A stretch of DNA of 64,000 bases from an uncultured Myxococcales bacterium (GTDB lineage Bacteria > Myxococcota > Kuafuiibacteriia > Kuafuiibacteriales > Kuafuiibacteriaceae): NCBI GenBank assembly GCA_964473255.1, contig CAYYOT010000004.1:68897-132896 (forward strand). The letters are read 5' to 3'. The position numbers and the translations under genes were made by a program. The stretch's first letter is position 1, and every line of letters begins with the position of its first letter. The notes beneath the pieces were generated by a model. That model did not search any database. It had not been told where the DNA came from and saw only the letters and a list, made by a program, of their open reading frames with translations. Shown here in pieces: positions 3,961 through 45,725 of this stretch.

Positions 3961-4019
3961 CCGAGATCCACGTTGCGACCTGGAGACCGGCTTAACAGCC
4001 CGGGGAACCGACAACAATC

Positions 4020-4874
4020 TCAGGGAAGCCCGGCTCCGGGAACGTCGACTTCGAAGATCTCGATGCGACCCGTTCGCCGCCGCGCAGCTTCGGCGGGAAC
4101 GCTCGTCTCCGCGCACAGCGCGAAGAGATGGCGTCGCTCGGGGCCGCCGAGCATGCAAGCATACGGTGTGACCGACGGCTCCGCGAAGGCGACCGGTTCC
4201 CCGGACGGTGCCAGACGAAAGACGCGGCCCTGCTTGGTGCAGGCACACCAGACCGCGCCCTCTTCATCGAGGCACAAACCATCGGGCTGAAGGCCGTCGA
4301 TCTCGGCCCAGATGCGGCGGTTTTCCAAGGTCCCGTCGGCCGCAACGTCGAATGCGCTGATGCGCGCCGCGAACGTCTCCGCCACCATGAGGGTCTTACC
4401 GTCGGGAGTGAGCGCCGTCCCGTTGGGAAAGATCACTTCACGGTTTACGACCTTCACGTTGCGATCCGTGCCGACCAAAATGAGCTCCGCCGGCTTGACG
4501 GGTGCGCCTGCATCGACGTCATAGCCGAAGTTGCCCACGTAAGCTCGACCCCTTCGATCGACGAGCATGTCGTTACAGTGGAAGGAGGCAAGGTGAGCCA
4601 GGTCGACGTAAGGCTCCAGCTCCGACCCCCGGATGCGGAGGACCCTTCGCGTCGTCATCGCGACGACCAAGGGCGTCCCGTCGGGCAAAAATCCCAAGCC
4701 GCCCGGCCGGTCTTCCATCCGCTGGACGATGCGCTCGGCGTTGCCCCGCATGTCGACCGTGATCACCTCGTGGGCGTGCTGGTCCGTTAACCAGAGCCGA
4801 TCCTCTCGCCATCGAGGCCCTTCGGGAAAGGCCAACCCGTCGAGGAGGCGTCGCACAGGCGGGTAGGAGCGCAT
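4020..4874 (-). CDS. SMP-30/gluconolactonase/LRE-like six-bladed beta-propeller hydrolase
   Basis: 284-aa ORF. Motifs FPEGPRW, GFLPDGTPLVV, FPNGTALTPDGKTL and LQPDGLCLDEEGAVW are typical of the SGL family. Confidence 0.7.
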   Translation of the reverse strand: MRSYPPVRRLLDGLAFPEGPRWREDRLWLTDQHAHEVITVDMRGNAERIVQRMEDRPGGLGFLPDGTPLVVAMTTRRVLRIRGSELEPYVDLAHLASFHCNDMLVDRRGRAYVGNFGYDVDAGAPVKPAELILVGTDRNVKVVNREVIFPNGTALTPDGKTLMVAETFAARISAFDVAADGTLENRRIWAEIDGLQPDGLCLDEEGAVWCACTKQGRVFRLAPSGEPVAFAEPSVTPYACMLGGPERRHLFALCAETSVPAEAARRRTGRIEIFEVDVPGAGLP

Positions 4875-31376: not shown

Positions 31377-33191
31377 GTGTTCCAGCCTACCACCTTTGGT
31401 AAGTACTTCCTGACCCGTCGACTGGCCGTCGGCGGCATGGCCGAGGTGTTCCTGGCCAAGCTCTACGGAGCGGACGGCTTCGAAAAAGATCTCGTCATCA
31501 AGCAGATTCTGCCGCAGCACGCGAAAGACCCTGAGTTCGTTCAGAGCTTCGTGGGCGAAGCCAAGATCGCGGTCAGCCTGAACCACGCCAACATCGTGGG
31601 GATCTACGAACTGGGCCGGGTCGACGGGACCTACTTCATCGCCATGGAGTACGTCGACGGTCTCGACGTCTTCCTGACCAGCGAAGCCGCCCGCAAATAC
31701 GGCGAGGTCCTGACGCCGGGAATGGCTCTGCTGGTGTGCGAGGAAGTCGCGAAGGGTCTGGATTACGCTCATCGCAAGCGGGACCCCACCGGGCACCTCT
31801 TGGGCCTCGTTCATCGCGATCTGAATCCCCGAAACGTTCTCATCTCCCGCGAGGGCGAAGTGAAGATCCTCGACTTCGGGATCGCCAAGACCGCGTCCCG
31901 CGCCGCGGAGATGCCGAAGACCCGCGCCGGTGTGGTCAAGGGAACGACCGGCTACATGTCGCCCGAGCAGGCCACGGGCAAAGACGTCGACGCCCGCACG
32001 GACATCTATCAGGCCGGGCTCCTCTTGTACGAGCTGCTCACGGGAGAAGCGCTCTTTTGGCGACCCGACGAAGAGATCACTCGGTCGCTGATGCGACGCC
32101 ACGAGGTCCCCATGCCTTCCCAGTTCTCGGAGACGCTTCCGCCCGAGGTCGACGAGATCTGTACGACGTGTCTGGCCCGCCAGCCGGACGACCGCCCAGC
32201 ATCGGCCGCCGACCTCGCGCAGCGTCTCGCCCGGCTTCGCTTCCTCTACTACCCCGATGAGGACCACCGAAAGCTCGGCGCACTCGTCACCCGATTGATC
32301 GCAAAGCGCGAGGAGGAGGTCGCACGCACGCAAATCCCGTCGGACATCCCGAACACCGTCGAGCTGTCCGAAGTCATCTCCCAGGCGATCGAGCACTCGA
32401 TCTCGGATGACATCGAGACGATCGCGACCCGCTTTCCCTCGGCCGATCTGTCGGAACCAGGCTCAGCCCCCCTCCAGGTCAAGAGCGACCAGACGGTGCA
32501 GCCGACACCGGCGTTCGGCACCGAGAACCCGCTCGAGACGCCGGCGCCCGAACCGACCGCGGTGCCCGTGGCACCACTGGCATACGGGCCGACCGATTCA
32601 TCGGATGTCGAACCAGCCGACGTTGCGGAGGTTGCTCTCGTTCCCGAACGACGTTGGATGTTGGCCGCAGGCAGCGCGGCCGCCGTCGTCGTCTTGGGTT
32701 TGGCGCTTTGGGCTACGGTCGGCGGCGGGACGACGGCCGAACCGGAACCCGTCCGACCCGCGCCCGTCTCGTCGGTCTCCGGTCCGACGGCCGTGACGGC
32801 AGTGCTGGACGCCGGAGCGCCCCGTGACGCCGGGGGCGAGGTTGCCCTCACGGCGGCCGAAGCATCGGGTTCCGATGAGGTCACGTCGATACGTCGGACG
32901 CCCCGTACCTTCGGCGAAGCCACCGTCGCCTTCGGAACGCGCTCCTGCTCCAGCCGGGTTACCGTCGACGGCAAGATCGTGACCCGCACGACTCCGTCGT
33001 ACGACCATCGACTTCCGGCGGGCCGGCATCGCATCGTCATCGAAGGAACCAGCTGCCCGCCGATCGAACGGCCGGGCTCCCTGCGGCGTGCCATCCCGGT
33101 CGTCGTCTCCGACGTGATGCTCGAGGCCGACCGCAACGTGAAGATCATTGCCGATTTCGAGAAGGACCGACTGATCGTCAAGAGCTACTGA
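31377..33191 (+). CDS. Eukaryotic-like Ser/Thr protein kinase with a C-terminal PEGA-like domain
   Basis: Kinase subdomains are present: GGMAEVFLA, VIKQI (Lys), HRDLNPRNVLI, ILDFGIAKT and GTTGYMSPEQ. It has a Pro/Ala-rich linker with one transmembrane helix (MLAAGSAAAVVVLGLALWA) and a C-terminal PEGA-like beta domain (RHRIVIEGTSCPPIE). Confidence 0.85.
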   Translation: MFQPTTFGKYFLTRRLAVGGMAEVFLAKLYGADGFEKDLVIKQILPQHAKDPEFVQSFVGEAKIAVSLNHANIVGIYELGRVDGTYFIAMEYVDGLDVFLTSEAARKYGEVLTPGMALLVCEEVAKGLDYAHRKRDPTGHLLGLVHRDLNPRNVLISREGEVKILDFGIAKTASRAAEMPKTRAGVVKGTTGYMSPEQATGKDVDARTDIYQAGLLLYELLTGEALFWRPDEEITRSLMRRHEVPMPSQFSETLPPEVDEICTTCLARQPDDRPASAADLAQRLARLRFLYYPDEDHRKLGALVTRLIAKREEEVARTQIPSDIPNTVELSEVISQAIEHSISDDIETIATRFPSADLSEPGSAPLQVKSDQTVQPTPAFGTENPLETPAPEPTAVPVAPLAYGPTDSSDVEPADVAEVALVPERRWMLAAGSAAAVVVLGLALWATVGGGTTAEPEPVRPAPVSSVSGPTAVTAVLDAGAPRDAGGEVALTAAEASGSDEVTSIRRTPRTFGEATVAFGTRSCSSRVTVDGKIVTRTTPSYDHRLPAGRHRIVIEGTSCPPIERPGSLRRAIPVVVSDVMLEADRNVKIIADFEKDRLIVKSY

Positions 33192-33233: not shown

Positions 33234-34580
33234 TCAGGTCAGCATCAAATCGTGCACCAGGAGCGGCGGGACCACGGCTCCCGCCGCCCACCGAGGAAGC
33301 CCGAGGGCTTCGATGCGATTCAGCAGACCGATGACGTCGACGGTGGCCGCCATCGGCGGAGCCAAGCCGGCGACCTCGCCGCGGTGGATCAGATGCGGTG
33401 CACCGCGCGTTGCGCCGATGACTCGGACCGTCTGGCTGTCGATCAACCGGAGGCTCTCGAAATCGCGAATGCAGATCCCCTGATCGACCCGAGCCACCAG
33501 CTCGGAGATACTGTTGTCTTCGCCGGCCATCACGAGATGGCTCGCCCCCTCGTAGCCCCAAAAGTCATCGGCCGCTCGCCGGTGCCCCGTCGGGCGCTCA
33601 TCCATCTGGGCCGCGGTCGACCAGGCGTAGACGGCGGCGCGCGCCTGACCTTCCTCGATGATCTGAACCCGCTTTCGAGCGACGCCTTCGACGTCGAACG
33701 GCACACCGCGATGGTCGGGATGATTGAAGTCGTCTTCGAGCTGGACCCGCGGGTCGACGATCGACTGTCCGAGATGATCCGACAAAAACGACGCACCGGC
33801 GGCGGCCATTCGCGCCCCGCAGGTCCGACCCAAGAAGCTGATGAGACGGGCGACGGCCGGTTCCTCCAAGACGGCAACGTAACGGCCGGGACGGAGCGCC
33901 ACGTGTCGAGCCGGGACATCGAGTTGTTCGAGCGCTAGCTCGACCATTTCCTCGACGTCGAGCTCGTCCCGCGACCACGAGCTGGCGTCCGCTCGACCCC
34001 GACCCAGGTCGGCATGCCCGAACTCCATCTCCACGTCGATCCGCGTACGCGGATGGTATGCGAGAAGGCCGCGCGTATTCGCGATGGCGTACGGGACAGG
34101 CACCCCATCGGGATCGAATGTTCCTCGGGTGACGCGAACGCGACCCCGCGTGGATACGTGTCGTTCCTTGGCGGCAAGCACGGCTCGCGCAGCGAGACCG
34201 GTGCGTTCGATCGGGCCGAGGGCCGCGGTCGCTGCATCGTAGGCCGAGACTTCTTCGTAGTTTTGCGGGTCGGGCAACATGCCGTTCGTCTCCGCACCCT
34301 TTTCCAAAGACGCGACGCGCGACTTCGCGGACACGATGGCCTCCGCCACGCCATCGGTCGAGAAGTCGGACGTGGCCACCCGAGACACTCCACCCTGATG
34401 GGCGATGCGGACGGTCAGAAGCTCGAGCCTTCGGTCGTGCGCGTCCCGGATCCCGGAAGCATCGAACTCCGTGCTCCCGACCTCACCGCCGAGCAGCGCG
34501 ATCTCCGCCTCGTCGACGCCTTGCGATGCCTCGGCCAGGGCCGCTTCGAGAATGCGGAAGGCTGCTTCCTGGGCGTGCAT
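33234..34580 (-). CDS. TldD/PmbA-family (peptidase U62) protein
   Basis: The likely start is MHAQEAAFRILEAALAEA at 34580, 4 nt downstream of the stop of the paralog. The family-typical organisation and a Gly-rich C-terminal domain are present. Confidence 0.65.
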   Translation of the reverse strand: MHAQEAAFRILEAALAEASQGVDEAEIALLGGEVGSTEFDASGIRDAHDRRLELLTVRIAHQGGVSRVATSDFSTDGVAEAIVSAKSRVASLEKGAETNGMLPDPQNYEEVSAYDAATAALGPIERTGLAARAVLAAKERHVSTRGRVRVTRGTFDPDGVPVPYAIANTRGLLAYHPRTRIDVEMEFGHADLGRGRADASSWSRDELDVEEMVELALEQLDVPARHVALRPGRYVAVLEEPAVARLISFLGRTCGARMAAAGASFLSDHLGQSIVDPRVQLEDDFNHPDHRGVPFDVEGVARKRVQIIEEGQARAAVYAWSTAAQMDERPTGHRRAADDFWGYEGASHLVMAGEDNSISELVARVDQGICIRDFESLRLIDSQTVRVIGATRGAPHLIHRGEVAGLAPPMAATVDVIGLLNRIEALGLPRWAAGAVVPPLLVHDLMLT

Positions 34581-34584
34581 GACC

Positions 34585-36117
34585 TCAGTACCGATCCTTT
34601 CGCGCCGTTCGCCGCCAGCTCCTCCTGCGCGGAGGAGCCGAGCTGCGCAGTAACCCGTCCGGTAGACGAAAGCGGCCGGCGGGCAGGCCCGTCGTCGCAT
34701 CGCCCACCTGCGCATCGCGGACGCGCAGGGGCGGTACCGCCGCCCCGACGACCAGGCCGGCATCATCGAGGTAGCCGTACGTGCCCTGAGCGTCCCGGGG
34801 CCCGAGCGCGTCGACCGTCGTGAAGAACTCGAGCACGTGACCGCCGTAGATCAGATCGCGGACGGGCTCGATCGGCCGACCGTCGCGAATGAGCCAAGCG
34901 CGGCCCCCGACCGCCGTGAACGATCCATCGGGAAGGCTTTCGAGGTGCGAAAGCGATTCCACGAGGATTCCGTGCGACGTGTCGGCGACGAGGGCCTCGA
35001 GGCTTTCCGCCTCGCCGCCGTCCATCACCCAGTTAGACGGCGACACCCGAGGGGGCGCATCCCAGGCCGGCGCCCGCATGCTCGCCGTCGGTCGTTCGAG
35101 ACCTGCCCGCGCAGCGCCCGAACGGGAGCAGAGGCCGCGGGCAAAGCAGCCATCTTCGAGCAGGGTGACCGGCTCGGACGGTATGGCCTCGTCGTCGTAC
35201 GCATAGTTCGCTGCCCCACCGGGAAACTGTGAATCGACGGACAGGCGCATCCCCGCGGGGCCCAAGCGTCGACCAACGAAACCGCCGAGTTCAGCGCTCC
35301 GGGCCGCGCCATGGCCCGGGCGATCCATGTCGAAGACGTCGCCCATGATCGATAGGTGGGCAGCCGTGACCGCCGGCGCCAGGACCAGCGACATCCCGCC
35401 GGAGGGCGCGACCGAGGCGCGGGTCTGCTCGACGATGGCGGCGCCCAGGTCGTCTGCTCGACGCGCGGGGTCCAGCTCGTCGATGAACTCCCAGCCCTTG
35501 GCCGCCATCGCCCGGATCCGACCGTTCGGGTAGCCGAGCGAAAGGAGACGATCGCCATCGGATGCGCCCGCTTCGATGAGGAGCGATGTCCAGAGCTTGT
35601 CCTGCTCGACCTCCGCGCCCTCGGAGGTCACGACGATCGAATGGCGGCGCTCGAAGCCCAGGTGACTTCGCGCCATGACGACCGCGGGACTGCGGCGAAG
35701 GTTGGCGTCCACGGTTCGTAGCAGGTCGACTTTCTCGTTCAGCGGCACTGTCGCCGGGTCGCGCTCGTGCTGCGTGCGATGCAGACCGCGGATGGGTTCG
35801 GCCTCCACGATCTCGTCGCCGTGCTCGGCAAGGACGGAGGCCGCTTGCGCCGCGGACACCGCCCGCCGGGCGAGGACCGCCGCATCATGGCGATTCGGCT
35901 CGGCCACCGCCGCGAATCCCCAAGCCCCGTGAGCGAGCACGCGAAGGCCAAGACCGCGGTCGGCGCGAACGCGGGAGCGGACCCAGTCGCCGCTGTGGAC
36001 ACGCAGGTCCTCGCGGCTGACCCACTCGTAGCGGCCCGCCGCGAAGACGGCCCCCAGGCGGACCGCTTCTTCGACGGCGATGTACGCCAGCTCCAGTGCC
36101 AGGGATTGACTGTACAA
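34585..36117 (-). CDS. TldD/PmbA-family (peptidase U62) protein, paralog
   Basis: 510 aa. The first codon at 36115-36117 is TTG. The region LELAYIAVEEAVRLGAV...RVRADRGLGLRV... is TldD/PmbA-like. It is in tandem with the downstream paralog. Confidence 0.65.
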   Translation of the reverse strand: MYSQSLALELAYIAVEEAVRLGAVFAAGRYEWVSREDLRVHSGDWVRSRVRADRGLGLRVLAHGAWGFAAVAEPNRHDAAVLARRAVSAAQAASVLAEHGDEIVEAEPIRGLHRTQHERDPATVPLNEKVDLLRTVDANLRRSPAVVMARSHLGFERRHSIVVTSEGAEVEQDKLWTSLLIEAGASDGDRLLSLGYPNGRIRAMAAKGWEFIDELDPARRADDLGAAIVEQTRASVAPSGGMSLVLAPAVTAAHLSIMGDVFDMDRPGHGAARSAELGGFVGRRLGPAGMRLSVDSQFPGGAANYAYDDEAIPSEPVTLLEDGCFARGLCSRSGAARAGLERPTASMRAPAWDAPPRVSPSNWVMDGGEAESLEALVADTSHGILVESLSHLESLPDGSFTAVGGRAWLIRDGRPIEPVRDLIYGGHVLEFFTTVDALGPRDAQGTYGYLDDAGLVVGAAVPPLRVRDAQVGDATTGLPAGRFRLPDGLLRSSAPPRRRSWRRTARKDRY

Positions 36118-36386
36118 CGCGACTCCTCTCGGCGGCCCAGGTTCCCCGCCATGCGGTTATCCCTTGGGTTGGGACCCAGGGCAAGCGGCACGTCTTCGTA
36201 CCGGCGATCTGCGCTCCGTCCGGCGGGAAGAAGCAGGGTCGGGAGAGGGTCGGCGCCTCTTCAGCGACATCTTCTTGTTGGTTCCTAAATCGGGGAGGAA
36301 GAGCCCTTCTGCGGACGCGAAGCGACGACCGAGTCGGCAGCGGAGCTCGCCTTGCAAGGCCTCACTTCCTTTGGAAAATTGCGTCC

Positions 36387-39300
36387 ATGCTGGATCATCG
36401 CGCGGCGTCGTCCTGGCCCTGGGTGATGGCCTGCACGTGGCCGTTCCTCGCCTGTGGGTCCGATGCGGCCGAGCCTGAGCGCTTCATCGAGCTGCGGAGC
36501 GCGACCGCAATGCAGTGTCCGACCGGAGGTACGGTGGTGTTGGTCGGAGTGGACGCCGACCGGAACGGTACGCTGGCCGATTCGGAGGTCGAGCAGCAGG
36601 CGACGATCTGTGATGGCCGGAATGGAAGCAGCGTCCTGATCCGAACGGCCGGCGAACCGCCGGGTACCGAGTGTCCGACCGGAGGGATCCGGGTCGAGGC
36701 CGGGCCAGACTTGGACGGCAGCGGAGAGCTCGAGCCCGGAGAGGTCCGGGAGAGTCGCCAGCTCTGTAATGGCGCCGACGGCCGTCCACATCGAATCGAG
36801 ATCGAGACGGAAGTTCCGGGAGACAACTGCGGAGCTGGCGGCAGCCGTATCCGCTCTGGGATCGACCTCGACGGCAACGAGGTTCTCGACGCCGAGGAGG
36901 TCGAGTTCGAGTCGTACGTTTGCCAGCCCCTCGCCAGCCTCGTTCGCATCACGGAAGAGCCCGCGGGTGCGGCATGCGCCGAAGGGGGGACGGCGGTCGA
37001 GGTCGGACTCGACACGGACAACGACGGGGAGCTCTCCGATGAAGAAGTCTCCGGTCGCCGCGTCGTCTGCGACGGCGTGACCGGAGACGCTTCACTCGTC
37101 GCCGTCGTCGTCGAGCCGGCCGGCGAACGCTGTGAGGCCGGAGGCTCGCGCATCGAGACCGGGCGCGACGACAACGGCAACGCCCAGCTCGACCCGGAAG
37201 AGGTCAGCCTCGTGAGCTACGTGTGCAGCGGCGATGCAGGCGCCGACGGCGACGATGGCTCGCTCGTACGCGTGTCGACCGAGCCTGTCGGCGCCAACTG
37301 CACCGGGGGAGGTCTCCGCGTCGATACCGGACCCGATCTCGACGACGACGGCGTCCTGGACAGCAACGAGATCGTGGAGTCGGCCTTCGCCTGCAACGGG
37401 TCGTCCAATGCCGTGCTGGTCGACTCCAGCCCCGTCGCAGAAGGCGCCGACTGTTCCGAGGGGGGGACCCGAGTGAAGGTGGGAGTCGACGCCAACGCCA
37501 ACGGGATCCTCGAAGAGAGCGAAGTCAGTACCAGTTTCGTCGTGTGCAACGGACAGGCGTCGGTACCCTTTGCCATTCAGACCGGGTCGCTCCCCGACGG
37601 CCGCCGGTCCGAAAGCTACTCCGCGGCGATCACCGCGGCGGGAGGAACCGGCGGCGGCTACGCTTGGACCGTTTCCGCCGGAATGCTTCCTCCAGGCTTG
37701 GCTCTGGGCGCGAGCGGAACACCCAGCACGACGCTGGCGGGGATTCCGACCGCTGCCGGCACCTATACCTTCACCCTCAGGGTCAGCGACGTGTTCGGAC
37801 AAATCACGGAGCGGGGCTTCACTTTGCTCATCGAGGGTGCCGATCTCGCCATCGCTACCCACACGGTACCTCGGCCCGAAAGCGGTACGCCCTACTCTTT
37901 CGATTTGCTCGCTTCTGGGGGCCGGTCTCCGTACCGCTGGTCCTTGACGTCGGGAACCCTCCCCGCGGGGCTCGCGCTTTCCACGAACGGTCGAGTCTCC
38001 GGGACCCCGACGTCGACCGTCGGCTCGACCGTACTGGTCGAAGTGGCCGACGCCGACGGCGATACGCAGGTCGCTCGCTTACGATTTCTGAACACACCGC
38101 GCTGGGTCGCGTTCACCGGCGACACGGTCACGAACGGGACGACCGACGTCTCCATAGTAAACATCGAGGGTGGGACGCCGGGGACACCCGTGGTCTTGAA
38201 CAAGACGCCGGTCGCCGGCGGCGGCGTCGAAGCCGACTCGGTCCAGTTTTCGGATAACGGCGAGTGGCTCGGCTTCATCGGCGACTTGGATACGGCCGAT
38301 GAAGAGGAACTCTGGGTCGTCGATGTGTCGGGGGCGACGCCCGGAACCGCAGTGAAGGTCAATGCGCCTTTCACGGGTCAGCCGGCGGACGAAGAGTACG
38401 TACAAGACTTCTACTTCGCGGCCGACGGAGACTTCGTCGTATACAGCAAGTGGCTCCTCACGCCGTCGTTCACGAGCATCGAGTTCTTCATTCACGACCT
38501 GCGGACCGGCTCCACGGCACGGAACGTTTCGCCGACGGGGCAGGTGTTCCAAGGGGAAGACGTCGTGATCTCCCCGGACGGAAACACGGTGGCATTCTCG
38601 GGGTACTCGGGCTCGGACCACGGCTTCTGGGTGGTCGACGCGACGTCCTCGTCGGCCAAGCCCGTCCGCTTCGCCCTGGCGGGCCTCCAAGATCTCGAGG
38701 ACTTCGCCTTCGGGCCTGACTCCGATGAGCTTTTCTACACCGACGCTTCGCGGAATCTGAGTGTGGTGGACATCTCCACCTTGGCTTCCACGGGCTCGAT
38801 CGGCACGTCGCTGACCATCAGCAGCACGATTACCGGCCGGATCATCTCCGTCTCTCCAGACGAGACGACGCTCGCCTTCGATCGAACGACGGAACTGAGC
38901 GTCGTCGACCTGTCGGCGACGCCCCGGCGACTCCGAAGGATCCAGCCCGGGCCTCTGAGTCGTTCGTCCGTTGCCGACTGGACCGTCGACTCCCGGGGGC
39001 TAATGCGAGACGGGTCCTACATCGATCGAGAAACGGGTGACGAGACCGAGATCTTTCCCCCCACGACGGGGTTCGATGACCGCCTGGAAGACCTGGTCGT
39101 CGTGCCGAGCAACGTCGGTCTCGTCTTTCGGAGTCAGCGGGAGTCTCCGACGGTCTTCGATGCCTACCTGGCCCGCTACGACGATCCCGGCAATCCAACG
39201 CGCCTGTCCACGAACATATCCGGCGCCGAGGACGTGAATAGTCTCGTCGTCTCGCCCGACGGGGACCACGTGCTCTATAGCGGGGATGCGAACGGAGCCG

Positions 39301-39587
39301 GTATCGACGAGCTGTTCGTGATCGACATCTCCGGAGCGACGCCGACGGCGCCGACGCGCGTGAACGAAGCGCTCGTCGTCGGCGGCGACGTCCTCGACGA
39401 CAAGCAAACCGGCTATGCGATCGTCGGGGACTACGATGGAGTGGTCTACATCGCAGACCAGGACACCGATGACGTCTTCGAGCTGTACTTGCGCTGGCGG
39501 ACCGGCGGAGCGCTCGATCCCGCCGTGACCGTGAGTCCCACGCTGCCCGCGGACGGCGACGTCGAGAGCGTATTCGTGCAGCCCTAG
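36387..39587 (+). CDS. Giant multidomain lipoprotein: 7 disulfide-bracketed EF-hand-like Ca-binding repeats, 2 Ig-like (cadherin-like) domains and a beta-propeller
   Basis: The real start is the ATG at 36387 (MLDHRAASSWPWVMACTWPFLACGS, a lipobox). The repeats are C-x2-GG-x-V-x-V/A-G-x-D-x-D-x-x-G-x-L-x-x-x-E-V-x6-7-C. The Ig-like blocks read GGTGGGYAWTVSAGMLPPGLAL...GTYTFTLRVSD and GRSPYRWSLTSGTLPAGLAL. SPDGxxVxFSG repeats are PD40-like. Confidence 0.7.
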   Translation: MLDHRAASSWPWVMACTWPFLACGSDAAEPERFIELRSATAMQCPTGGTVVLVGVDADRNGTLADSEVEQQATICDGRNGSSVLIRTAGEPPGTECPTGGIRVEAGPDLDGSGELEPGEVRESRQLCNGADGRPHRIEIETEVPGDNCGAGGSRIRSGIDLDGNEVLDAEEVEFESYVCQPLASLVRITEEPAGAACAEGGTAVEVGLDTDNDGELSDEEVSGRRVVCDGVTGDASLVAVVVEPAGERCEAGGSRIETGRDDNGNAQLDPEEVSLVSYVCSGDAGADGDDGSLVRVSTEPVGANCTGGGLRVDTGPDLDDDGVLDSNEIVESAFACNGSSNAVLVDSSPVAEGADCSEGGTRVKVGVDANANGILEESEVSTSFVVCNGQASVPFAIQTGSLPDGRRSESYSAAITAAGGTGGGYAWTVSAGMLPPGLALGASGTPSTTLAGIPTAAGTYTFTLRVSDVFGQITERGFTLLIEGADLAIATHTVPRPESGTPYSFDLLASGGRSPYRWSLTSGTLPAGLALSTNGRVSGTPTSTVGSTVLVEVADADGDTQVARLRFLNTPRWVAFTGDTVTNGTTDVSIVNIEGGTPGTPVVLNKTPVAGGGVEADSVQFSDNGEWLGFIGDLDTADEEELWVVDVSGATPGTAVKVNAPFTGQPADEEYVQDFYFAADGDFVVYSKWLLTPSFTSIEFFIHDLRTGSTARNVSPTGQVFQGEDVVISPDGNTVAFSGYSGSDHGFWVVDATSSSAKPVRFALAGLQDLEDFAFGPDSDELFYTDASRNLSVVDISTLASTGSIGTSLTISSTITGRIISVSPDETTLAFDRTTELSVVDLSATPRRLRRIQPGPLSRSSVADWTVDSRGLMRDGSYIDRETGDETEIFPPTTGFDDRLEDLVVVPSNVGLVFRSQRESPTVFDAYLARYDDPGNPTRLSTNISGAEDVNSLVVSPDGDHVLYSGDANGAGIDELFVIDISGATPTAPTRVNEALVVGGDVLDDKQTGYAIVGDYDGVVYIADQDTDDVFELYLRWRTGGALDPAVTVSPTLPADGDVESVFVQP

Positions 39588-39865: not shown

Positions 39866-39918
39866 GACCGCCTTCCGGCCGGGTGGTCATCGGCGGAAGA
39901 TCCTCGGTACGGTCAGGC

Positions 39919-41226
39919 ATGGGTTTGTCGCGAGCTGCGCGTATCACTCTGCTGGCCGCGCTGGTGGCGTGCACCGAGGATGAGGGGAGCGAGGAGCGAC
40001 GTCCCGATGCGGTGGCTCGGCCGGATGCCCGTGGTGCCGATGCGACCGCACCCGACGCCGGAGGTCCCGATGCCCGCCGTCCCGATGGTTCGAGCCTTCC
40101 CGATGCCGCCCGGATGACCGACGCTTCTCGACCCGATGCACGGGCGCCGGATGCCGGTGCGCCCGGTGACGAGATCGTCGGCGTTAAGCCCCCGCCTCGC
40201 CGAGCCCATACATCGACCCTCCTCGACGACGGCCGGGTCTTGATCGTCGGTGGCACGGGGGCGGCCGAGAGCCCCGAGCAATCCTGGCTCTTCGACCCGA
40301 CCACGAATCGTTTCTCGCGGGGACCCGACCTCGACCCCGGTCTCAGCGGCCATTCCGCAACGAAGCTGCCCGGGGGCAAGGTGCTCATCGCCGGCGGACT
40401 CGACGGCTTCGGCACGAACGCCACGACCGTCGACACGGCTCTGCTCTTCGATCCGGCCACCGATACCTTCGAAACGACGGGCTCGATGACCGGACCCCGG
40501 TTCGCACACCGTGCGTTCCTCCTGGAGAACGGACCCGACGCGGGCAAAGTGCTCGTGATCGCGGGGGCGAAGCGTCCGCCTGTGGGTGACGAGCGAATCC
40601 TCCCGCTCGAAGTCTACGATCCGGCCACCGGCGAGTTCGCCCTCTTGGGAACGAGCCTTCCGATCCAGCGCGACGGCGCGAACTACACGGTCCTAGCCGA
40701 CGGTCGAATTTTGATTGCGGGCGGGGCCACCCGAAGCGGTGGTCGCGACTACGTGGATACGGCCCTGATCTACGATCCGAGCACGCGACAGCTCGAAGAC
40801 GTCATGGACACGATGGCTTTCCTTCGCGCAAACCAGTCCTCCATCCTCCAGCCCGACGGCGAGGTCTTTCTTTTCGGAGGCGGCAATCGGACGACGAGTA
40901 TGATCGAAGAGACCGACATCTATGATCCGTCGACCGACACCTTCCGCGACGGTCCCGACTGGACGGACTTCGTGTCCAGCCATCGCATGGTTCCGCTCGA
41001 CGACGGTCGAGTCCTACAGATGGGTGGAACGTCCGTGAGCGGAGTTCGAGACGACGTCATCATTTGGGATGCCGCGACCTTGGAAACCACGCTTCATCCT
41101 CGAAAGCTGTCTCGAGGCCTGTTCAGCTTCACCGCCACCATCTTGCAGGACGGGAGAATCCTCCTCGTGGGTGGCCAGGGACAAGGCAGTATCGTCGTCG
41201 GCGAGGCCGAGCTCTTTTTGCCCTGA
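39919..41226 (+). CDS. Kelch-repeat (galactose-oxidase-like beta-propeller) lipoprotein
   Basis: The ATG at 39919 gives MGLSRAARITLLAALVACTED (lipobox). A Pro/Asp/Ala-rich linker follows. Repeated Kelch-like blocks are present (DGRVLIVGG, GGKVLIAGG, GKVLVIAGA, DGRILIAGG, GEVFLFGGG, DGRILLVGG). Confidence 0.7.
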   Translation: MGLSRAARITLLAALVACTEDEGSEERRPDAVARPDARGADATAPDAGGPDARRPDGSSLPDAARMTDASRPDARAPDAGAPGDEIVGVKPPPRRAHTSTLLDDGRVLIVGGTGAAESPEQSWLFDPTTNRFSRGPDLDPGLSGHSATKLPGGKVLIAGGLDGFGTNATTVDTALLFDPATDTFETTGSMTGPRFAHRAFLLENGPDAGKVLVIAGAKRPPVGDERILPLEVYDPATGEFALLGTSLPIQRDGANYTVLADGRILIAGGATRSGGRDYVDTALIYDPSTRQLEDVMDTMAFLRANQSSILQPDGEVFLFGGGNRTTSMIEETDIYDPSTDTFRDGPDWTDFVSSHRMVPLDDGRVLQMGGTSVSGVRDDVIIWDAATLETTLHPRKLSRGLFSFTATILQDGRILLVGGQGQGSIVVGEAELFLP

Positions 41227-41248: not shown

Positions 41249-42406
41249 TCAATCCGACGGTCGCGACGCGTCGAGGGGGCGGGCCGCTCCGCCCCGCCGC
41301 CGCAGTCGAAAGTCGGTGTCCTTGGGCGGCACGAGCGCCTCGACGCCGCCTTTCGAGACGCGGATGACGTAGTCGGGGACGGGGTCGATCGCCAGGACTC
41401 GACGGAGATCGGTGAGAGGCGACCTCCAGTTCGATGCGCCGAGCGCCAGGCCGAAGACCCAGCCTTCGGGTGACCGCCCCAAGAGCTTCGCCGGATACTC
41501 GGCCCGCGACTGCCAGCGGAGGTCGACGTCGGACGGACACGACCACACGAGCACCATCGGCACGTACGGTCCCAGCACGCGGTGAAACCGAAGGGCCTGA
41601 CGCTGCGCCAGGCGCACTTCTTCGCAGGCTCCCTCCCCGGCCCAACCTGCAGGCGTTGCCGTGGCCGTCGCCACCTCTTTCCATCCGCGCGGGACGAGCG
41701 CCGCTGTCGCCGCCGAAGTCGGGGCGACCGAGTCGGCGGGGACCTCCGCGAGTCCCGTCGCCGAAGGCACCTCGAATGACTCGAAGTTCGACGTGCGAAG
41801 AACATCGGCCAGTTTCTGGGTGGCCTGCTGGAGGGTCGCTCCGAGCACCCACCATGGACTGAGGGGCTCGGGATCCGACGACCGAGCCTGCCGCCACACG
41901 CTCCATCCGGTGGCCCCGGAAAAGCGCAGCGGACCTTCCACGCCGCTGCGAATCTCGATGTCGCTGAGCACTACTTCAGCCAGTATCCAGGGTACCTCAC
42001 CCTTCTTCACGTCTTCGACGTACCCGCGGGCCCGCAGGACCTTGGCCGAAAGAACCAGGTCGGACCGTCGGGCCTGGCGAACGTCGCGAACGAGTTCGAC
42101 CCGAGCAAACGCCGACGTCGAGACGAGAGCTTGGGCGAAGGCCCGCGTTACCTGCTCCATCGGCTCCGGAGCGAGCCAGTCGAGGTTGGTTCCGCGAAAG
42201 AGCCGCCGTCGGTAGACGTACTTCCCCTTATCGTCCGGCGACTCGCCGCCTTTGCGCGCATCGACCAGCGGCAGGATCGCGATCGACTGTCTCTGGGCTG
42301 CGGGCTCCAAAAAACGCTGGTCGACCAGGAGCGACGGGATCTGGGCAGGGGTCCCCGCGCAAGCCAGCACGACGCCCATCACCCACGGCGCCGACCATCG
42401 GATCAT
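41249..42406 (-). CDS. Hypothetical lipoprotein, translationally coupled downstream of lnt
   Basis: The ATG at 42404-42406 (MIRWSAPWVMGVVLACAGTP, a lipobox) overlaps the lnt stop (ATGA). The upstream 155 aa of track ORF 41249..42871 overlap lnt and are judged spurious. Confidence 0.5.
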   Translation of the reverse strand: MIRWSAPWVMGVVLACAGTPAQIPSLLVDQRFLEPAAQRQSIAILPLVDARKGGESPDDKGKYVYRRRLFRGTNLDWLAPEPMEQVTRAFAQALVSTSAFARVELVRDVRQARRSDLVLSAKVLRARGYVEDVKKGEVPWILAEVVLSDIEIRSGVEGPLRFSGATGWSVWRQARSSDPEPLSPWWVLGATLQQATQKLADVLRTSNFESFEVPSATGLAEVPADSVAPTSAATAALVPRGWKEVATATATPAGWAGEGACEEVRLAQRQALRFHRVLGPYVPMVLVWSCPSDVDLRWQSRAEYPAKLLGRSPEGWVFGLALGASNWRSPLTDLRRVLAIDPVPDYVIRVSKGGVEALVPPKDTDFRLRRRGGAARPLDASRPSD

Positions 42407-43917
42407 CTTGCACGCCACACGCGAACGGCGGTGAACAGACAAAAGAGGAGCCCCACCCATCCGAGAAAGTCGCCCCAGCGCATGTGCAGCGAGGTGCTGT
42501 CGTCTCGAATGACGGGGACCCGGGCCACCAGCGTTTCCCGGGTCCACTGTCCGGTCCGCTCGGCGATGCGGCCGACCGGATCGACGATCGCACTGATCCC
42601 CGTGTTGGTGGAACGAATCATCGCCCGTCGCGTCTCGATGGAGCGAAAGGTGGCGAGGGCCAAGTGGGTGAGTGGCTCGTGGCTGTCTCCATACCAGCTG
42701 TCGTTGGTGATGTTGACGAGCACGTCCGCGGGCCCCGCTCGGTTCCACATGGTTCGCACGAAGGACGGGATGATGTCCTCGTAGCAGATCATCGGTAGCA
42801 GCCGGTACGGGCCGAGCCGGAGATGCTCGAACGTCCGGCCCCGGGTGAAGGACGCGCTTCGCGGGAACCACTCCTTGATCTGGGGGAAGGTCTCCACGAA
42901 CGGCAGCGACTCGCCGAAGGTCAGAAGACGGACCTTGTCGAAACGGGATGCAAGGGCACCGGTGGACGACGTGAGCACGGCCGTGTTGAACACTTCGCGT
43001 TCTTCACCGCGAATGTCTCCGGAGATGGCTCCGAAGAGCAAAGGAACCGGGATGTTGCCGTTGACGTACGCAAGTTCGGTCCGGTCGCGAGGAAGAAATC
43101 GGTTGTAGGAACTCTCCGGCCAGACCACGAGATCGAGATCCGGGTGCGCGTCGTACGCGGCCCTCGTCATCTCTTGGTGCCGACGGATGAACTCGGAGCG
43201 CTTCCCCACTTTGTCGCGCGCGCCGAGATTCGCCTGGATCAGGGCCACTTCGATGGTCGGCGAGCGCTGGACCAGGAGGTCGACCTGATACATCCGGATC
43301 GTCCCGTAGAGCGCCACGACGGCGAGCAGAGCGGAAGCCTCGGCCAGCGGGCGGTGCATCCGTCGCCCTTCCCGAGCCGCGGCGACCGCGTCCGCCAACG
43401 CCCCGTTGACGCCCCCGACCAAGACGCTGAGGCCCGCCATCCCGAAGAGCTCGACGTGTTGAGTGAGGCGCGGGACCACGTACAGCGTGTTGCCCGCATA
43501 GTTGGGAAACAAGAACGGGTACCAGGCCTCGATGGCGATCACCGCCATCGTCAGCGAGATCGCCGTCGGAATGCGCCAGTGGGTCCGAGCCTGATGCTCG
43601 AAGAGCGCCACGATCCCCCACGCCAAGCCCTGGTACGCGGTCAACAGGAAGAAGCCGAGGACCGCCCAGTGCAGGTCGAGATGAGCGAACGTCTGCAGCA
43701 GGTGGACGACCCAGTAGTAGCCGCCCCACATGGCGACGGTCCCGGCCAGCCATCCGAGGAAGAAGGAGGCGCGGGCGCTACGCTGGCGGGTCGCGGTCAT
43801 CAGCGGGACCAAGAAGACGAAGATCAGCGGCCATAGGCCGAACCCGACGAATCCGAGAAAATAGAGGACCCCGCTGGCGACGGCCCAGGCCCAGGGCAAG
43901 CGCGCGGGTTCAGGCAC
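42403..43917 (-). CDS. lnt: Apolipoprotein N-acyltransferase
   Basis: 504 aa. The N-terminal multi-transmembrane region is followed by a CN-hydrolase (nitrilase-like) domain with the VWPE motif (LDLVVWPESS) and the catalytic-Cys region (MICYED). Confidence 0.8.
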   Translation of the reverse strand: MPEPARLPWAWAVASGVLYFLGFVGFGLWPLIFVFLVPLMTATRQRSARASFFLGWLAGTVAMWGGYYWVVHLLQTFAHLDLHWAVLGFFLLTAYQGLAWGIVALFEHQARTHWRIPTAISLTMAVIAIEAWYPFLFPNYAGNTLYVVPRLTQHVELFGMAGLSVLVGGVNGALADAVAAAREGRRMHRPLAEASALLAVVALYGTIRMYQVDLLVQRSPTIEVALIQANLGARDKVGKRSEFIRRHQEMTRAAYDAHPDLDLVVWPESSYNRFLPRDRTELAYVNGNIPVPLLFGAISGDIRGEEREVFNTAVLTSSTGALASRFDKVRLLTFGESLPFVETFPQIKEWFPRSASFTRGRTFEHLRLGPYRLLPMICYEDIIPSFVRTMWNRAGPADVLVNITNDSWYGDSHEPLTHLALATFRSIETRRAMIRSTNTGISAIVDPVGRIAERTGQWTRETLVARVPVIRDDSTSLHMRWGDFLGWVGLLFCLFTAVRVWRAR

Positions 43918-44230
43918 CGTGTCCCCCAGGGGAAAACCGTCGATGGTCCAGGACCTGCCACCCGACGAAAAGAATGGCCACCGCCGCTCGGAACACCTGG
44001 GTGTTGAGGGCCTCGGTCATCGAAGGGTACATCATGGGGACGGCCCACGAGACCCACGCTCCGGTCGCGAGCGCGAGGCTCGCCGCCAGCAGCGAAGACA
44101 AGCCAGACTGCCAACCTAGCCCCGACACCACGAATCCCGAGGCGACCACTCCGACGAATATCCCCCAGGGTCCAGGCAAGAGCGCCGCCGGGCACCCGGC
44201 GACGACGACAGCGACCACGGCCCGCCCCAT
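43910..44230 (-). CDS. Small polytopic membrane protein upstream of lnt
   Basis: An internal ATG at 44228-44230 gives MGRAVVAVVVAGCPAALLPGPWGIFVGVVASGFVVSGLGWQSGL.... It has 3-4 hydrophobic helices and overlaps the lnt start by 8 nt. Confidence 0.4.
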   Translation of the reverse strand: MGRAVVAVVVAGCPAALLPGPWGIFVGVVASGFVVSGLGWQSGLSSLLAASLALATGAWVSWAVPMMYPSMTEALNTQVFRAAVAILFVGWQVLDHRRFSPGGHGA

Positions 44231-44318
44231 GAGAGCGCCGTCATGTGGCGGGTGTCGCGCTTGTGTGTCAATCTTCCGTCTGTTAACCGGCCGTTTCCGG
44301 AGGACGTTCGAAGCCACC

Positions 44319-45725
44319 ATGCGCAAGTGCTCGATGTTCCTGCTTGTCGCGTGGACGTTGACGCCGACGACGCTCGCCGCCCAGGCCGACGCCCCGGATC
44401 CATCGCCCCGCGGCCTCACCCTGGACCAGCTCGTCGAGCTGGCCCTGGAGCGGAACCTGCTGGTCCAGGTGAAGGAGTCGGAGGTCGACCAAGCGCGTGC
44501 GCTCTACCGGACGGCAGCGTCCCTGGCCTACCCTCGGCTCGACGCCAACACGATCATCGGCGGCCCGACCGCTGAAGCCAAGACCGCCGTTCAGAACGAC
44601 ATCAACACCGTGACCCAATCATCGCTCGGCGGAGACCTCGATTTCGGACAGCTGGGCGTCACCATCCGGGGCGACGTCCAGATCGCGCAGCCACTGTACA
44701 CGTTCCGCAAGATCGCCAGCTCGAAGGACGCAACGAAGCACCTCATCAACGCCCGCGTGCAGGACGCGGAGGCAACGCGAGCCGACATCGTCCTCGACGT
44801 CCATCGCGCCTACTGGGCTCTGCAGCTCGTTCAGGCCTTCCTGAACACGATCGACGAGGGCACGGACACGTTGACCGGCGTCCTCGAGCAGATCGAGGAG
44901 CTGCTCGACGAGGACTCGGTGCAAGTCACGGAAAACGATCGACTCCGCCTCGTTCATGCCCTCGCTACCCTGCGCGTTCGCAAAGCGGAGGCGATCGGGG
45001 GGCGCGACCAGGCCAACCTCGCGCTGCGGATCCTGACCCGCTCCCCGCTGGATACACCGCTGATGGTGGAGCCTTTCGACCTCTACGACGCCATTCCCGA
45101 GACGACCCCGGAGGTCGAAACCACGGTGGAAGACGCCCGAGCCTCTCGGGCGGAGCTCCTGGCCCTGCGCCAGGTCATCGAAGCCCAGCAAGCCTTGGTC
45201 GAACTTCGGCGGGCAAACCTGTATCCCGACATCTTCTTTGGGGTGCGGATGAACTATGCGTACACGAGCAACGCGACCGAGCAGACCAATCCCTTCATCT
45301 ATGACCCGTTCAACGACTTCAACGTCGGTATGGGGATCGGTATTCGCTGGGAATTCGACCTGTTCACGAAGCTCGCGCGGATCGAGTTCGCCGAGTCCGT
45401 CCGCTCGACCCGCGAGATCCAGGAGGCCCTGGCCTCCGATGCCGTCGAGCTCGAGGTTCGGCAGATCCACACCCTCCTCGAGAACGGATTCGACCAGCTC
45501 GACGAACTCGACCGCGCCAACCGCGCCGCCCGGGCCTGGCTGACATCGACCGTCCTCGCGTACGACATCGGTACCGGCAACGCCCGCGAGCTGATCGATG
45601 CGTTCCTCGCCTGGGCCGCTTCCACCGCGCAGCTGGAGACGGTCCGGTACGACACCGTGGTTCGGCTGTCGGAGCTGGCCCGAGCCCGGGGACGTCTGGT
45701 CGCGCTCCGGGGAGCCCCTAGATGA
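44319..45725 (+). CDS. TolC-family outer-membrane efflux protein (OMF)
   Basis: The ATG at 44319 gives MRKCSMFLLVAWTLTPTTLAAQA (signal). The two-repeat OEP architecture is present (LTLDQLVELALERNLLVQ..., AEATRADIVLDVHRAYWALQ, ELLALRQVIEAQQALVELRRANLYPDI). Confidence 0.75.
   Translation: MRKCSMFLLVAWTLTPTTLAAQADAPDPSPRGLTLDQLVELALERNLLVQVKESEVDQARALYRTAASLAYPRLDANTIIGGPTAEAKTAVQNDINTVTQSSLGGDLDFGQLGVTIRGDVQIAQPLYTFRKIASSKDATKHLINARVQDAEATRADIVLDVHRAYWALQLVQAFLNTIDEGTDTLTGVLEQIEELLDEDSVQVTENDRLRLVHALATLRVRKAEAIGGRDQANLALRILTRSPLDTPLMVEPFDLYDAIPETTPEVETTVEDARASRAELLALRQVIEAQQALVELRRANLYPDIFFGVRMNYAYTSNATEQTNPFIYDPFNDFNVGMGIGIRWEFDLFTKLARIEFAESVRSTREIQEALASDAVELEVRQIHTLLENGFDQLDELDRANRAARAWLTSTVLAYDIGTGNARELIDAFLAWAASTAQLETVRYDTVVRLSELARARGRLVALRGAPR

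Follow-up and report, generated by a model that had tools for sequence, protein, structure and literature searches.

In the cbEGF arrays of fibrillin and Notch and in cadherin arrays, small extracellular modules are strung in tandem and Ca2+ bound at or near their junctions rigidifies the rod, with cbEGF modules being stabilised by disulfides as well. Thrombospondin (TSP) type 3 repeats, dockerins, and Excalibur domains carry tandem Asp-rich Ca2+ loops of the DxDxDG type, which are bracketed by disulfides in TSP type 3 and Excalibur. The Ig-like extenders of RTX adhesins (such as the ice-binding adhesin of Marinomonas primoryensis) are stiffened by Ca2+, and the Legionella adhesin Lcl possesses a collagen-like stalk. 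We analysed a 64,000-nucleotide (nt) stretch of DNA from an uncultured Myxococcota bacterium (contig CAYYOT010000004.1; this whole stretch is referred to as the window), in which the gene at 36387..39587 on the + strand encodes a predicted lipoprotein of 1066 amino acids (aa) with seven tandem repeats of the Pfam family DUF7151, two Ig-like domains, and a beta-propeller. The interpretation that we modestly favour, built on sequence patterns and predicted structures, is that the DUF7151 array would form a Ca2+-stiffened, disulfide-stapled stalk holding a non-catalytic TolB/DPP-IV-like propeller off the membrane.

Rigden et al. (PMC3123361) describe the Dx[DN]xDG/EF loop as an element that binds Ca2+ on its own and recurs in many contexts other than the EF-hand, including strand-loop-strand contexts. 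In the same survey, TSP type 3 repeats were named among the proteins with such Ca2+ loops, most of the non-EF contexts were extracellular, and the Dx[DN]xDG string was found not to cover all members of the class. When a loop of this kind was grafted between two beta-strands of CD2, it sufficed for a Ca2+ site (PMC3123361).

The lipoprotein and its seven DUF7151 units

The ATG at 36387, within an enclosing open reading frame (ORF) at 36096..39587 (+), gives the 1066-aa product, which is NCBI protein P0001 (100% identity over 100% of the length) and has about 20 full-length orthologues at 29-38% identity. ORFs on the opposite strand over this region were rejected as genes, being typical of DNA with 67% GC, while the + strand product has hundreds of homologues. 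Besides this gene, no further DUF7151 gene was found in the 64-kb window. The features of the gene and its product, with the evidence for each (HMM, hidden Markov model), are listed below.

36387..39587, + strand: DUF7151 / He_PIG / PD40-propeller lipoprotein gene, complete, 1066 codons plus stop (ORF, homologues)
36387..36455, + strand: lipoprotein signal peptide, MLDHRAASSWPWVMACTWPFLAC followed by GSD, lipobox F-L-A-C, Cys23 being the predicted lipidated residue
36474..36620, + strand: DUF7151 unit 1, aa 30-78, Cys44/Cys75, loop DADRNGTLADSE at nt 36552-36587 (HMM, Pfam, PS00018 match)
36630..36776, + strand: DUF7151 unit 2, aa 82-130, Cys96/Cys127, loop DLDGSGELEPGE at nt 36708-36743 (HMM, Pfam, PS00018 check, AlphaFold)
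36786..36929, + strand: DUF7151 unit 3, aa 134-181, Cys148/Cys179, loop DLDGNEVLDAEE at nt 36864-36899 (HMM, Pfam, AlphaFold)
36933..37076, + strand: DUF7151 unit 4, aa 183-230, Cys197/Cys228, loop DTDNDGELSDEE at nt 37011-37046 (HMM, Pfam, AlphaFold)
37089..37235, + strand: DUF7151 unit 5, aa 235-283, Cys249/Cys280, loop DDNGNAQLDPEE at nt 37167-37202 (HMM, Pfam)
37257..37403, + strand: DUF7151 unit 6, aa 291-339, Cys305/Cys336, loop DLDDDGVLDSNE at nt 37335-37370 (HMM, Pfam)
37410..37556, + strand: DUF7151 unit 7, aa 342-390, Cys356/Cys387, loop DANANGILEESE at nt 37488-37523 (HMM, Pfam)
37563..38102, + strand: two He_PIG (putative Ig, E-set) beta-sandwich domains, about aa 393-572 (Pfam, AlphaFold)
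38103..39584, + strand: PD40 / TolB / DPP-IV-type beta-propeller head, about aa 573-1066 (AlphaFold, Foldseek)

A preliminary description of this DNA, made from the letters and their translations, had proposed a giant lipoprotein with seven Cys-bracketed, EF-hand-like repeats of 35-37 aa from Cys to Cys, and had read it as a protein of Ca2+-dependent extracellular adhesion or of the matrix. The lipoprotein assignment held, as the protein begins with a signal peptide ending in WPFLAC, followed by GSD, with a lipobox at Cys23, and its orthologues read AC followed by GSD or GC followed by SGD at the matching position. Its length of 1066 aa makes the protein large, though not giant. Judged from its sequence, the gene product is best explained as a Sec-exported, lipid-anchored envelope protein of the uncultured Myxococcota bacterium. 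All seven repeats and all seven quoted loops were recovered in their places with Cys-x30-Cys spacing in every unit, so that the Cys-to-Cys span is exactly 32 aa in each copy and not 35-37 aa. The repeat unit itself measures about 49 aa and recurs with a period of 49-56 aa; besides the Cys-bracketed part it contains an EPxG motif and a beta-strand, both located before the first Cys.

When the seven copies were aligned, both Cys, the GG after the first Cys, the Gly before the loop, and D1, L8, and E12 of the loop were invariant (7/7). Every copy had D or N at loop position 3 and N, D, or S at position 5, and five had G at position 6, the exceptions being Glu in unit 3 (its sole deviation from the strict PROSITE pattern PS00018) and Ala in unit 5. 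PS00018 was matched by 5/7 loops and a relaxed EF pattern by 7/7, compared to mean chance expectations of 0.008 and 0.02, respectively, obtained by shuffling the repeat region 2000 times. Only 2/7 loops satisfied the strict Dx[DN]xDG string, because position 5 is often N or S. The mature protein contains no Cys outside the repeats, and the net charge of the 369-aa stalk is -53. A recent-duplication artefact was rejected as the origin of the repeats, as the units share on average just 37% aa and 49% nt identity. The units are therefore old, yet the conserved positions were kept, which indicates that these positions are under selection.

The repeat matched Pfam PF23657 (DUF7151; model length 46 positions) in seven stretches with 309.1 bits against a gathering threshold of 27.2 (E = 3.2e-94), and thus is not an uncatalogued oddity. 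No model for it was found in NCBIfam, no literature on DUF7151 or PF23657 was found in the searched library, and the domain has no described non-metal role. Although it is catalogued and occurs widely, the DUF7151 module has not been described, and no publication on its structure or function was found. A profile of 46 three-unit fragments was compared with 1.84 billion representatives at the 50% identity level, and it matched at least 6,931 clusters at E <= 1e-3 (a lower bound for the family), 4,124 at E <= 1e-10, and 1,492 at E <= 1e-30. Named relatives came from Myxococcota, Polyangiaceae, Pelomonas (Betaproteobacteria), and Pedobacter (Bacteroidota), and DUF7151 was also present in eight Maribacter phage records (Colly and Molly isolates).

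Conservation was then scored across the family. Because the units were gathered with HMMs containing the scored columns, the values are somewhat inflated: among 524 unique units from 86 other proteins, loop position 1 was D in 100%, position 3 N/D in 96%, position 5 D/N/S in 100%, position 6 G in 82%, position 8 L in 99%, and position 12 E in 99%, both Cys were kept in 98-100%, and the invariant positions as a group (two Cys, GG, G-x-D, L, and E) in 96-100%. A broader HMM yielded 1,775 unique units from 210 proteins, of which 1,740 had both Cys, 6 had neither, and 29 had one (Fisher p = 7e-10, odds ratio 193), and all four side-chain ligand positions were kept in 91% of the 1,740 two-Cys units. 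The Asp/Glu ligands are thus conserved in all seven aligned copies and in about 1,800 units of 210 other proteins. The two grounds for refutation named in the preliminary description, unconserved ligands and a match to a described domain without a metal role, did not apply. The joint loss of the two Cys is the signature of a coupled pair, and the conserved, covarying Cys of this exported protein would lie in an oxidising compartment and are predicted to form a disulfide.

The two Ig-like domains and the PD40-type propeller of the preliminary description were confirmed as well. Two stretches matched He_PIG with E = 9e-18 and 65 bits, the cut-off being 24, and this part was all-beta in the AlphaFold model of the C-terminal region with a predicted local distance difference test score (pLDDT) of 85-97. 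The C-terminal model including the propeller had a pLDDT of 86.9 and a predicted template modelling score (pTM) of 0.82, and its top Foldseek matches in the PDB were bacterial DPP-IV (5yp1) and TolB (2ivz, 1crz), with E of about 1e-12 to 1e-11, a probability of 1.0, and sequence identities of 14-18%. Pfam PD40 remained below its threshold of 20.9 on the window protein (16.9-19.1 bits), whereas it exceeded the threshold in the relatives P0003, P0005, P0013, and P0027 (32-66 bits; 61 bits for P0013), and faint Tricorn_N and Tricorn_2nd matches were seen in orthologues. The head shares its fold with TolB and with the N-terminal propellers of DPP-IV/S9 peptidases, but the protein has neither the TolB N-terminal domain nor the alpha/beta-hydrolase domain of the peptidases. 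The Pfam scan found no catalytic or peptidase domain after the propeller, with which the protein ends. With no such domain following it, the predicted propeller head is most likely a binding platform.

An EF-hand-type loop in a predicted strand-loop-strand context

The structure of the repeat was modelled with AlphaFold2 using residues 80-233 (three units) and a 46-sequence alignment, which gave a mean pLDDT of 93. The predicted unit consists of beta1, the EPxGxxC loop, beta2, the 12-residue loop, and beta3, which closes with Cys. Positions 1-9 of the loop were coil and positions 10-12 formed one helical turn in each of the three modelled units, and the turn led straight into beta3; unit 2, for example, appeared as a strand, a 9-residue coil with a helical turn, and a strand. 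The helical turn lies where the exiting helix of an EF-hand begins, and the DSSP assignment of the model has a beta-strand ending just before D1. The context of the loop in the model is strand-loop-strand, not helix-loop-helix. The EF-hand-like label of the preliminary description hence stands in part, in that the canonical 12-residue loop is present (PS00018 in 5/7), whereas the EF-hand fold is not supported, with predicted strands flanking the loop and Pfam EF-hand models remaining below threshold on the window protein (EF-hand_1, 16.3 bits against 25.4; EF-hand_6, 16.4 against 25; both at the loop of unit 4). Among the 46 fragments, EF-hand_1 aligned to the loops in 19 through model positions 9-22, and the EF-hand gathering cut-off was marginally passed by the relatives P0099 (26.2 bits) and P0117 (26.1 bits).

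Compared to the canonical EF-hand, DUF7151 shares the 12-residue arrangement of ligands, the Gly at position 6, the hydrophobic residue at position 8, and the Glu12 in a helical turn, but it has no entering helix and no EF-hand pairing, contains one predicted disulfide per unit, and is extracytoplasmic. DUF7151 resembles the Dx[DN]xDG loops described by Rigden, Galperin, and co-workers (including the integrin/PilY1-type "calcium blade") in having, between non-helical elements, a self-contained Ca2+-type loop whose ligand positions 1, 3, and 5 are followed by Gly6 and by an acidic ligand further on. Unlike these loops, DUF7151 retains the full 12-residue EF pattern with Glu12, and a tandem 50-aa three-strand module is not among the hosts listed in PMC3123361. 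No paper combining "EF-hand-like" with "strand-loop-strand" was found in the searched library.

Other relatives were sought in the PDB and in Pfam. Sequence searches of the PDB (phmmer with the whole protein, and the profile of 46 three-unit fragments) yielded no significant match, the weak ones being noise and sub-significant EF-hand loops, which were the sole thematically coherent matches. By fold, no PDB entry matched the three-unit model significantly in Foldseek, the best being TSP type 1 repeats (E = 0.43, TM <= 0.25). The EGF, cadherin, TSP_3, and Dockerin models of Pfam matched neither the window protein (E <= 1) nor the 46 fragments (E <= 0.1), and the Excalibur model gave no match in scans of the same sequences. 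The likeness to cbEGF and cadherin arrays is therefore one of functional analogy alone, with no sequence or fold relationship; cbEGF has three disulfides and the cbEGF consensus, whereas DUF7151 of bacterial lipoproteins has one predicted disulfide and an EF-type loop. TSP type 3 repeats have no regular secondary structure and wrap around a Ca2+ core, whereas DUF7151 is predicted to form a regular three-strand unit.

Ca2+ binding is the best inference for the DUF7151 loops, because the full 12-residue EF pattern including Glu12 is kept, the protein is extracytoplasmic, and the stalk carries a charge of -53. It is very unlikely, in our estimate, that the conserved D, N, and E residues bind no metal and instead shape the beta2-beta3 connection through a hydrogen-bonded Asx-turn/capping network, or that they prefer Mg2+, Mn2+, or a lanthanide. 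Sequence patterns alone do yield false positives, the EF-hand score of the window protein is below threshold as described above, and an acid at loop position 9 is frequent (D in 62% family-wide, D/E in 5/7 here), an extra carboxylate at this position favouring ions of higher charge. Against an absence of metal stand the near-invariance of exactly the six canonical EF-loop positions across about 1,800 diverged units (99% for Glu12 and for position 8) and the helical turn predicted exactly at loop positions 10-12. Moreover, every structurally characterised Dx[DN]xDG loop that was surveyed bound Ca2+, with superimposable ligands (PMC3123361).

The favoured stalk model would work as follows. A lipid anchor is followed by the stalk of seven DUF7151 modules, each about 50 aa, and then by the head. 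Each module would be a three-stranded beta unit stapled at one end by a disulfide between the Cys in the beta1-beta2 loop and the Cys that closes beta3. The opposite end would carry the beta2-beta3 connection, the 12-residue EF-hand-type loop, which would hold one Ca2+ per module through D1, D/N3, D/N/S5, the main-chain carbonyl at residue 7, residue 9, and E12, which sits on the single helical turn and would be bidentate. A three-strand meander would have its N- and C-termini at opposite ends, so that the modules could be strung end to end with each Ca2+ loop beside the junction with the preceding module, next to the disulfide end of that unit. Since this topology would place the beta2-beta3 loop at the junction, Ca2+ may stiffen the junctions as in cbEGF and cadherin arrays. 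Together with the disulfides, Ca2+, which is abundant outside the cytoplasm, would make the array a semi-rigid rod with a defined length, and the rod would set the distance from the membrane of the two Ig-like domains and the propeller, the presumed ligand-binding head. The analysis shows the sequence features and how far they are conserved, the membership in the family, the secondary structure as predicted, the fold class of the head, and the architecture across the family. We infer Ca2+ binding, the disulfides, the rod geometry, the junctional position of the loop, the stalk role, and the membrane and face at which the protein would reside.

Several conserved residues of the unit are not ligands. 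They lie in columns 9-14 and 47-48 (EPPGTE at aa 90-95 and NG at aa 128-129 of the window protein), with the Glu of EPxG conserved in 83%, the Asn before the first Cys in 62%, and the N and G after the second Cys in 51% and 78%, respectively. By topology, these residues are at the end of the unit that faces the Ca loop of the next unit, and in this arrangement they might complete or cap the Ca site of that unit.

One EF-type site per module, with cooperativity along seven to eight modules being conceivable, would also suit a Ca2+-responsive switch or sensor, in which the array is flexible or unfolded at low Ca2+ and extended at high Ca2+, and so tunes the reach of the head or couples folding to export as RTX repeats do. 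We consider such a switch quite unlikely. Both structural and regulatory roles are known for Dx[DN]xDG sites, and for one of them a role in folding is documented (PMC3123361); however, disulfide stapling should keep the module folded without Ca2+, the same survey holds that extracytoplasmic Ca2+ is normally high enough for permanent occupancy, and no conserved signalling gene adjoins the orthologues.

Anchor, array, and head across the family

The order of anchor, array, and head was surveyed in 201 full-length relatives. The array started within the first 70 aa in 172 of the 201, and in 154 of these 172 it was preceded by a lipobox-like motif, located a median of 16 aa upstream. The period of the array had a median of 55 aa (5-95% range 49-68), and the remainder C-terminal to it had a median length of about 370 aa. 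The heads varied, and comprised PD40, RCC1, FG-GAP, and PQQ/BamB-like propellers, the lectin-like Laminin_G_3 fold, Lcl_C, sortilin/BNR-like domains, and collagen. Seen across the family, this arrangement suggests that the repeats are a stalk close to the membrane and not the adhesive part. The number of copies per relative ranged from 3 to 22 with a mode of 8 (74/209), and exactly 8 copies were present in 18 of the 22 orthologues with full architecture. The peak at eight suggests that the length of the array is under selection.

Two relatives (P0027 and P0044) have a lipobox and a PD40 propeller like the window protein, but carry seven He_PIG domains where the DUF7151 array would be. A recognised type of spacer thus substitutes for the DUF7151 array before the same propeller, and from sequence this looks like a natural stalk swap. 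In a further relative (P0031), seventeen DUF7151 units are followed by an Lcl_C domain, which we take to be the head of the Legionella collagen-like adhesin, and DUF7151 stands there in the place of the collagen stalk of Lcl. Both the RTX extenders and the Lcl stalk are long repetitive spacers that project a binding head from the cell, as proposed here; they differ from DUF7151 in the fold of the module and in the anchor, which is an N-terminal lipid in DUF7151 proteins instead of type I secretion system (T1SS) retention or the outer membrane.

The same survey bears on the alternative, in line with the preliminary description, that the DUF7151 array is itself a Ca2+-dependent adhesive surface, for a polysaccharide, a mineral, or a host or prey matrix, with the Ig-like domains and the propeller being accessory. 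We regard this as unlikely. Many Ca2+-loop repeats of extracellular proteins do mediate binding, the array is very acidic, and in about 24 relatives fewer than 60 aa follow it, so that it makes up nearly the whole protein. On the other hand, the array is membrane-proximal in 86% of the relatives, with known binding domains (propellers, the ConA-like lectin fold, and Lcl_C) at the far end; it can be replaced by an Ig-domain stalk before the same propeller; and its surface residues outside the scaffold and ligand positions are poorly conserved, unlike a conserved binding face.

Several observations nevertheless weigh against the Ca2+-stiffened stalk. Position 6 is not Gly in two of the seven loops, and the pTM of the three-unit model was 0.62, which leaves the geometry between units uncertain. 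The idea of a strict ruler is weakened by the window protein, which has 7 units compared to 8 in its orthologues. Being highly acidic, the array could act as an interaction surface in its own right, the family sample was biased towards relatives of the query, and the genomic neighbourhood (described below) is not conserved and yields no functional clue.

A wider proposal for the family as a whole is put forward here tentatively. DUF7151 may be a new mini-domain without a detectable PDB relative, in which a complete EF-hand loop sits on a disulfide-stapled beta-hairpin at the module junctions, a bacterial counterpart of cbEGF and cadherin arrays. It would serve as a Ca2+-locked stalk of selected length, typically eight units, displaying propeller or lectin heads in thousands of lipoproteins of Myxococcota, Bacteroidota, and Proteobacteria and in at least one phage lineage.

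DUF7151 proteins were also seen in company with one another and in a phage. On an ENA contig (ERZ10759711, 3417..12113), the orthologue P0021 lies between two paralogues of about 855 aa, each of which has eight DUF7151 units and He_PIG and lacks a propeller; the three genes share one strand and are separated by 6-20 nt. Several other contigs carry one long DUF7151 member and one of about 850 aa. As their stalks are equally long (8 units), such neighbouring paralogues might act next to one another. In the Maribacter phage Colly_1 (MT732450.1), the product of Colly1_16 (2432..4405), annotated as a "tail fiber protein", combines a lipobox-like N-terminus (MVLTLVGC) with six DUF7151 units and collagen repeats, and its gene is followed by one of the OmpA family. 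Three units of the phage protein lack both Cys and keep the Ca-type loop, a direct example of the joint Cys loss described above. The tail fiber label derives from the collagen-like segment (PHROG matches at aa 300-555), and the sequence may instead be that of a phage-encoded lipoprotein; Colly1_16 thus lends weak support to a fibre role of DUF7151.

Genomic neighbourhood and implications for the family

The genes flanking the lipoprotein gene in the window are as follows.

31377..33191, + strand: Ser/Thr protein kinase, upstream
33234..34766 and 34585..36117, - strand: two adjacent TldD/PmbA-family metallopeptidase genes, upstream and divergent from the lipoprotein gene
39883..41226, + strand: Kelch-repeat predicted lipoprotein, downstream (signal peptide ending in ITLLAALVAC, followed by TEDEG; Kelch_6 E = 9e-31)
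42403..43917, - strand: apolipoprotein N-acyltransferase (Lnt), 3 kb from the lipoprotein gene
43974..45725, + strand: TolC-like outer-membrane efflux protein (OEP)

Since about 180 nt are shared by the two TldD/PmbA ORFs, translation of the 33234..34766 gene, the downstream one of the pair, probably begins later than its ORF does. Among named organisms, the best matches to Lnt came from metagenome-assembled genomes of Myxococcales/Myxococcota (about 65% identity). The presence of Lnt and OEP indicates a diderm with full lipoprotein maturation, and these two genes together with the kinase fit a genome of the myxobacterial type. In the product of 39883..41226, a Pro/Asp/Ala-rich low-complexity linker (RPDA/PDAG repeats) precedes the Kelch beta-propeller, making it a second propeller-on-tether lipoprotein, with a disordered tether in place of DUF7151 modules. 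None of these neighbours (the TldD/PmbA pair, the Kelch lipoprotein, Lnt, or OEP) was conserved beside orthologues in other assemblies, and with unrelated genes adjoining the orthologues no operon logic was discernible. A promoter and terminator scan at the lipoprotein gene was uninformative.

The novelty of these results is moderate. The new part is a structural context, for which no solved relative or literature was found, of a well-known Ca2+ motif, whereas the job is known from other Ca2+-binding tandem modules; Ca2+-stiffened tandem extracellular modules being well known, no concept is overturned. If the interpretation is true, a new structural context would be added to the convergently evolved EF/Dx[DN]xDG calcium loops, and a compact module of about 50 aa would become available for engineering Ca2+-dependent spacers. 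Moreover, a widespread domain with at least 6,900 clusters at 50% identity would gain a role as a one-Ca2+, one-disulfide building block for rigid lipoprotein stalks, and many "hypothetical" envelope proteins of myxobacteria and Bacteroidota would become annotatable as head-on-stalk display proteins.

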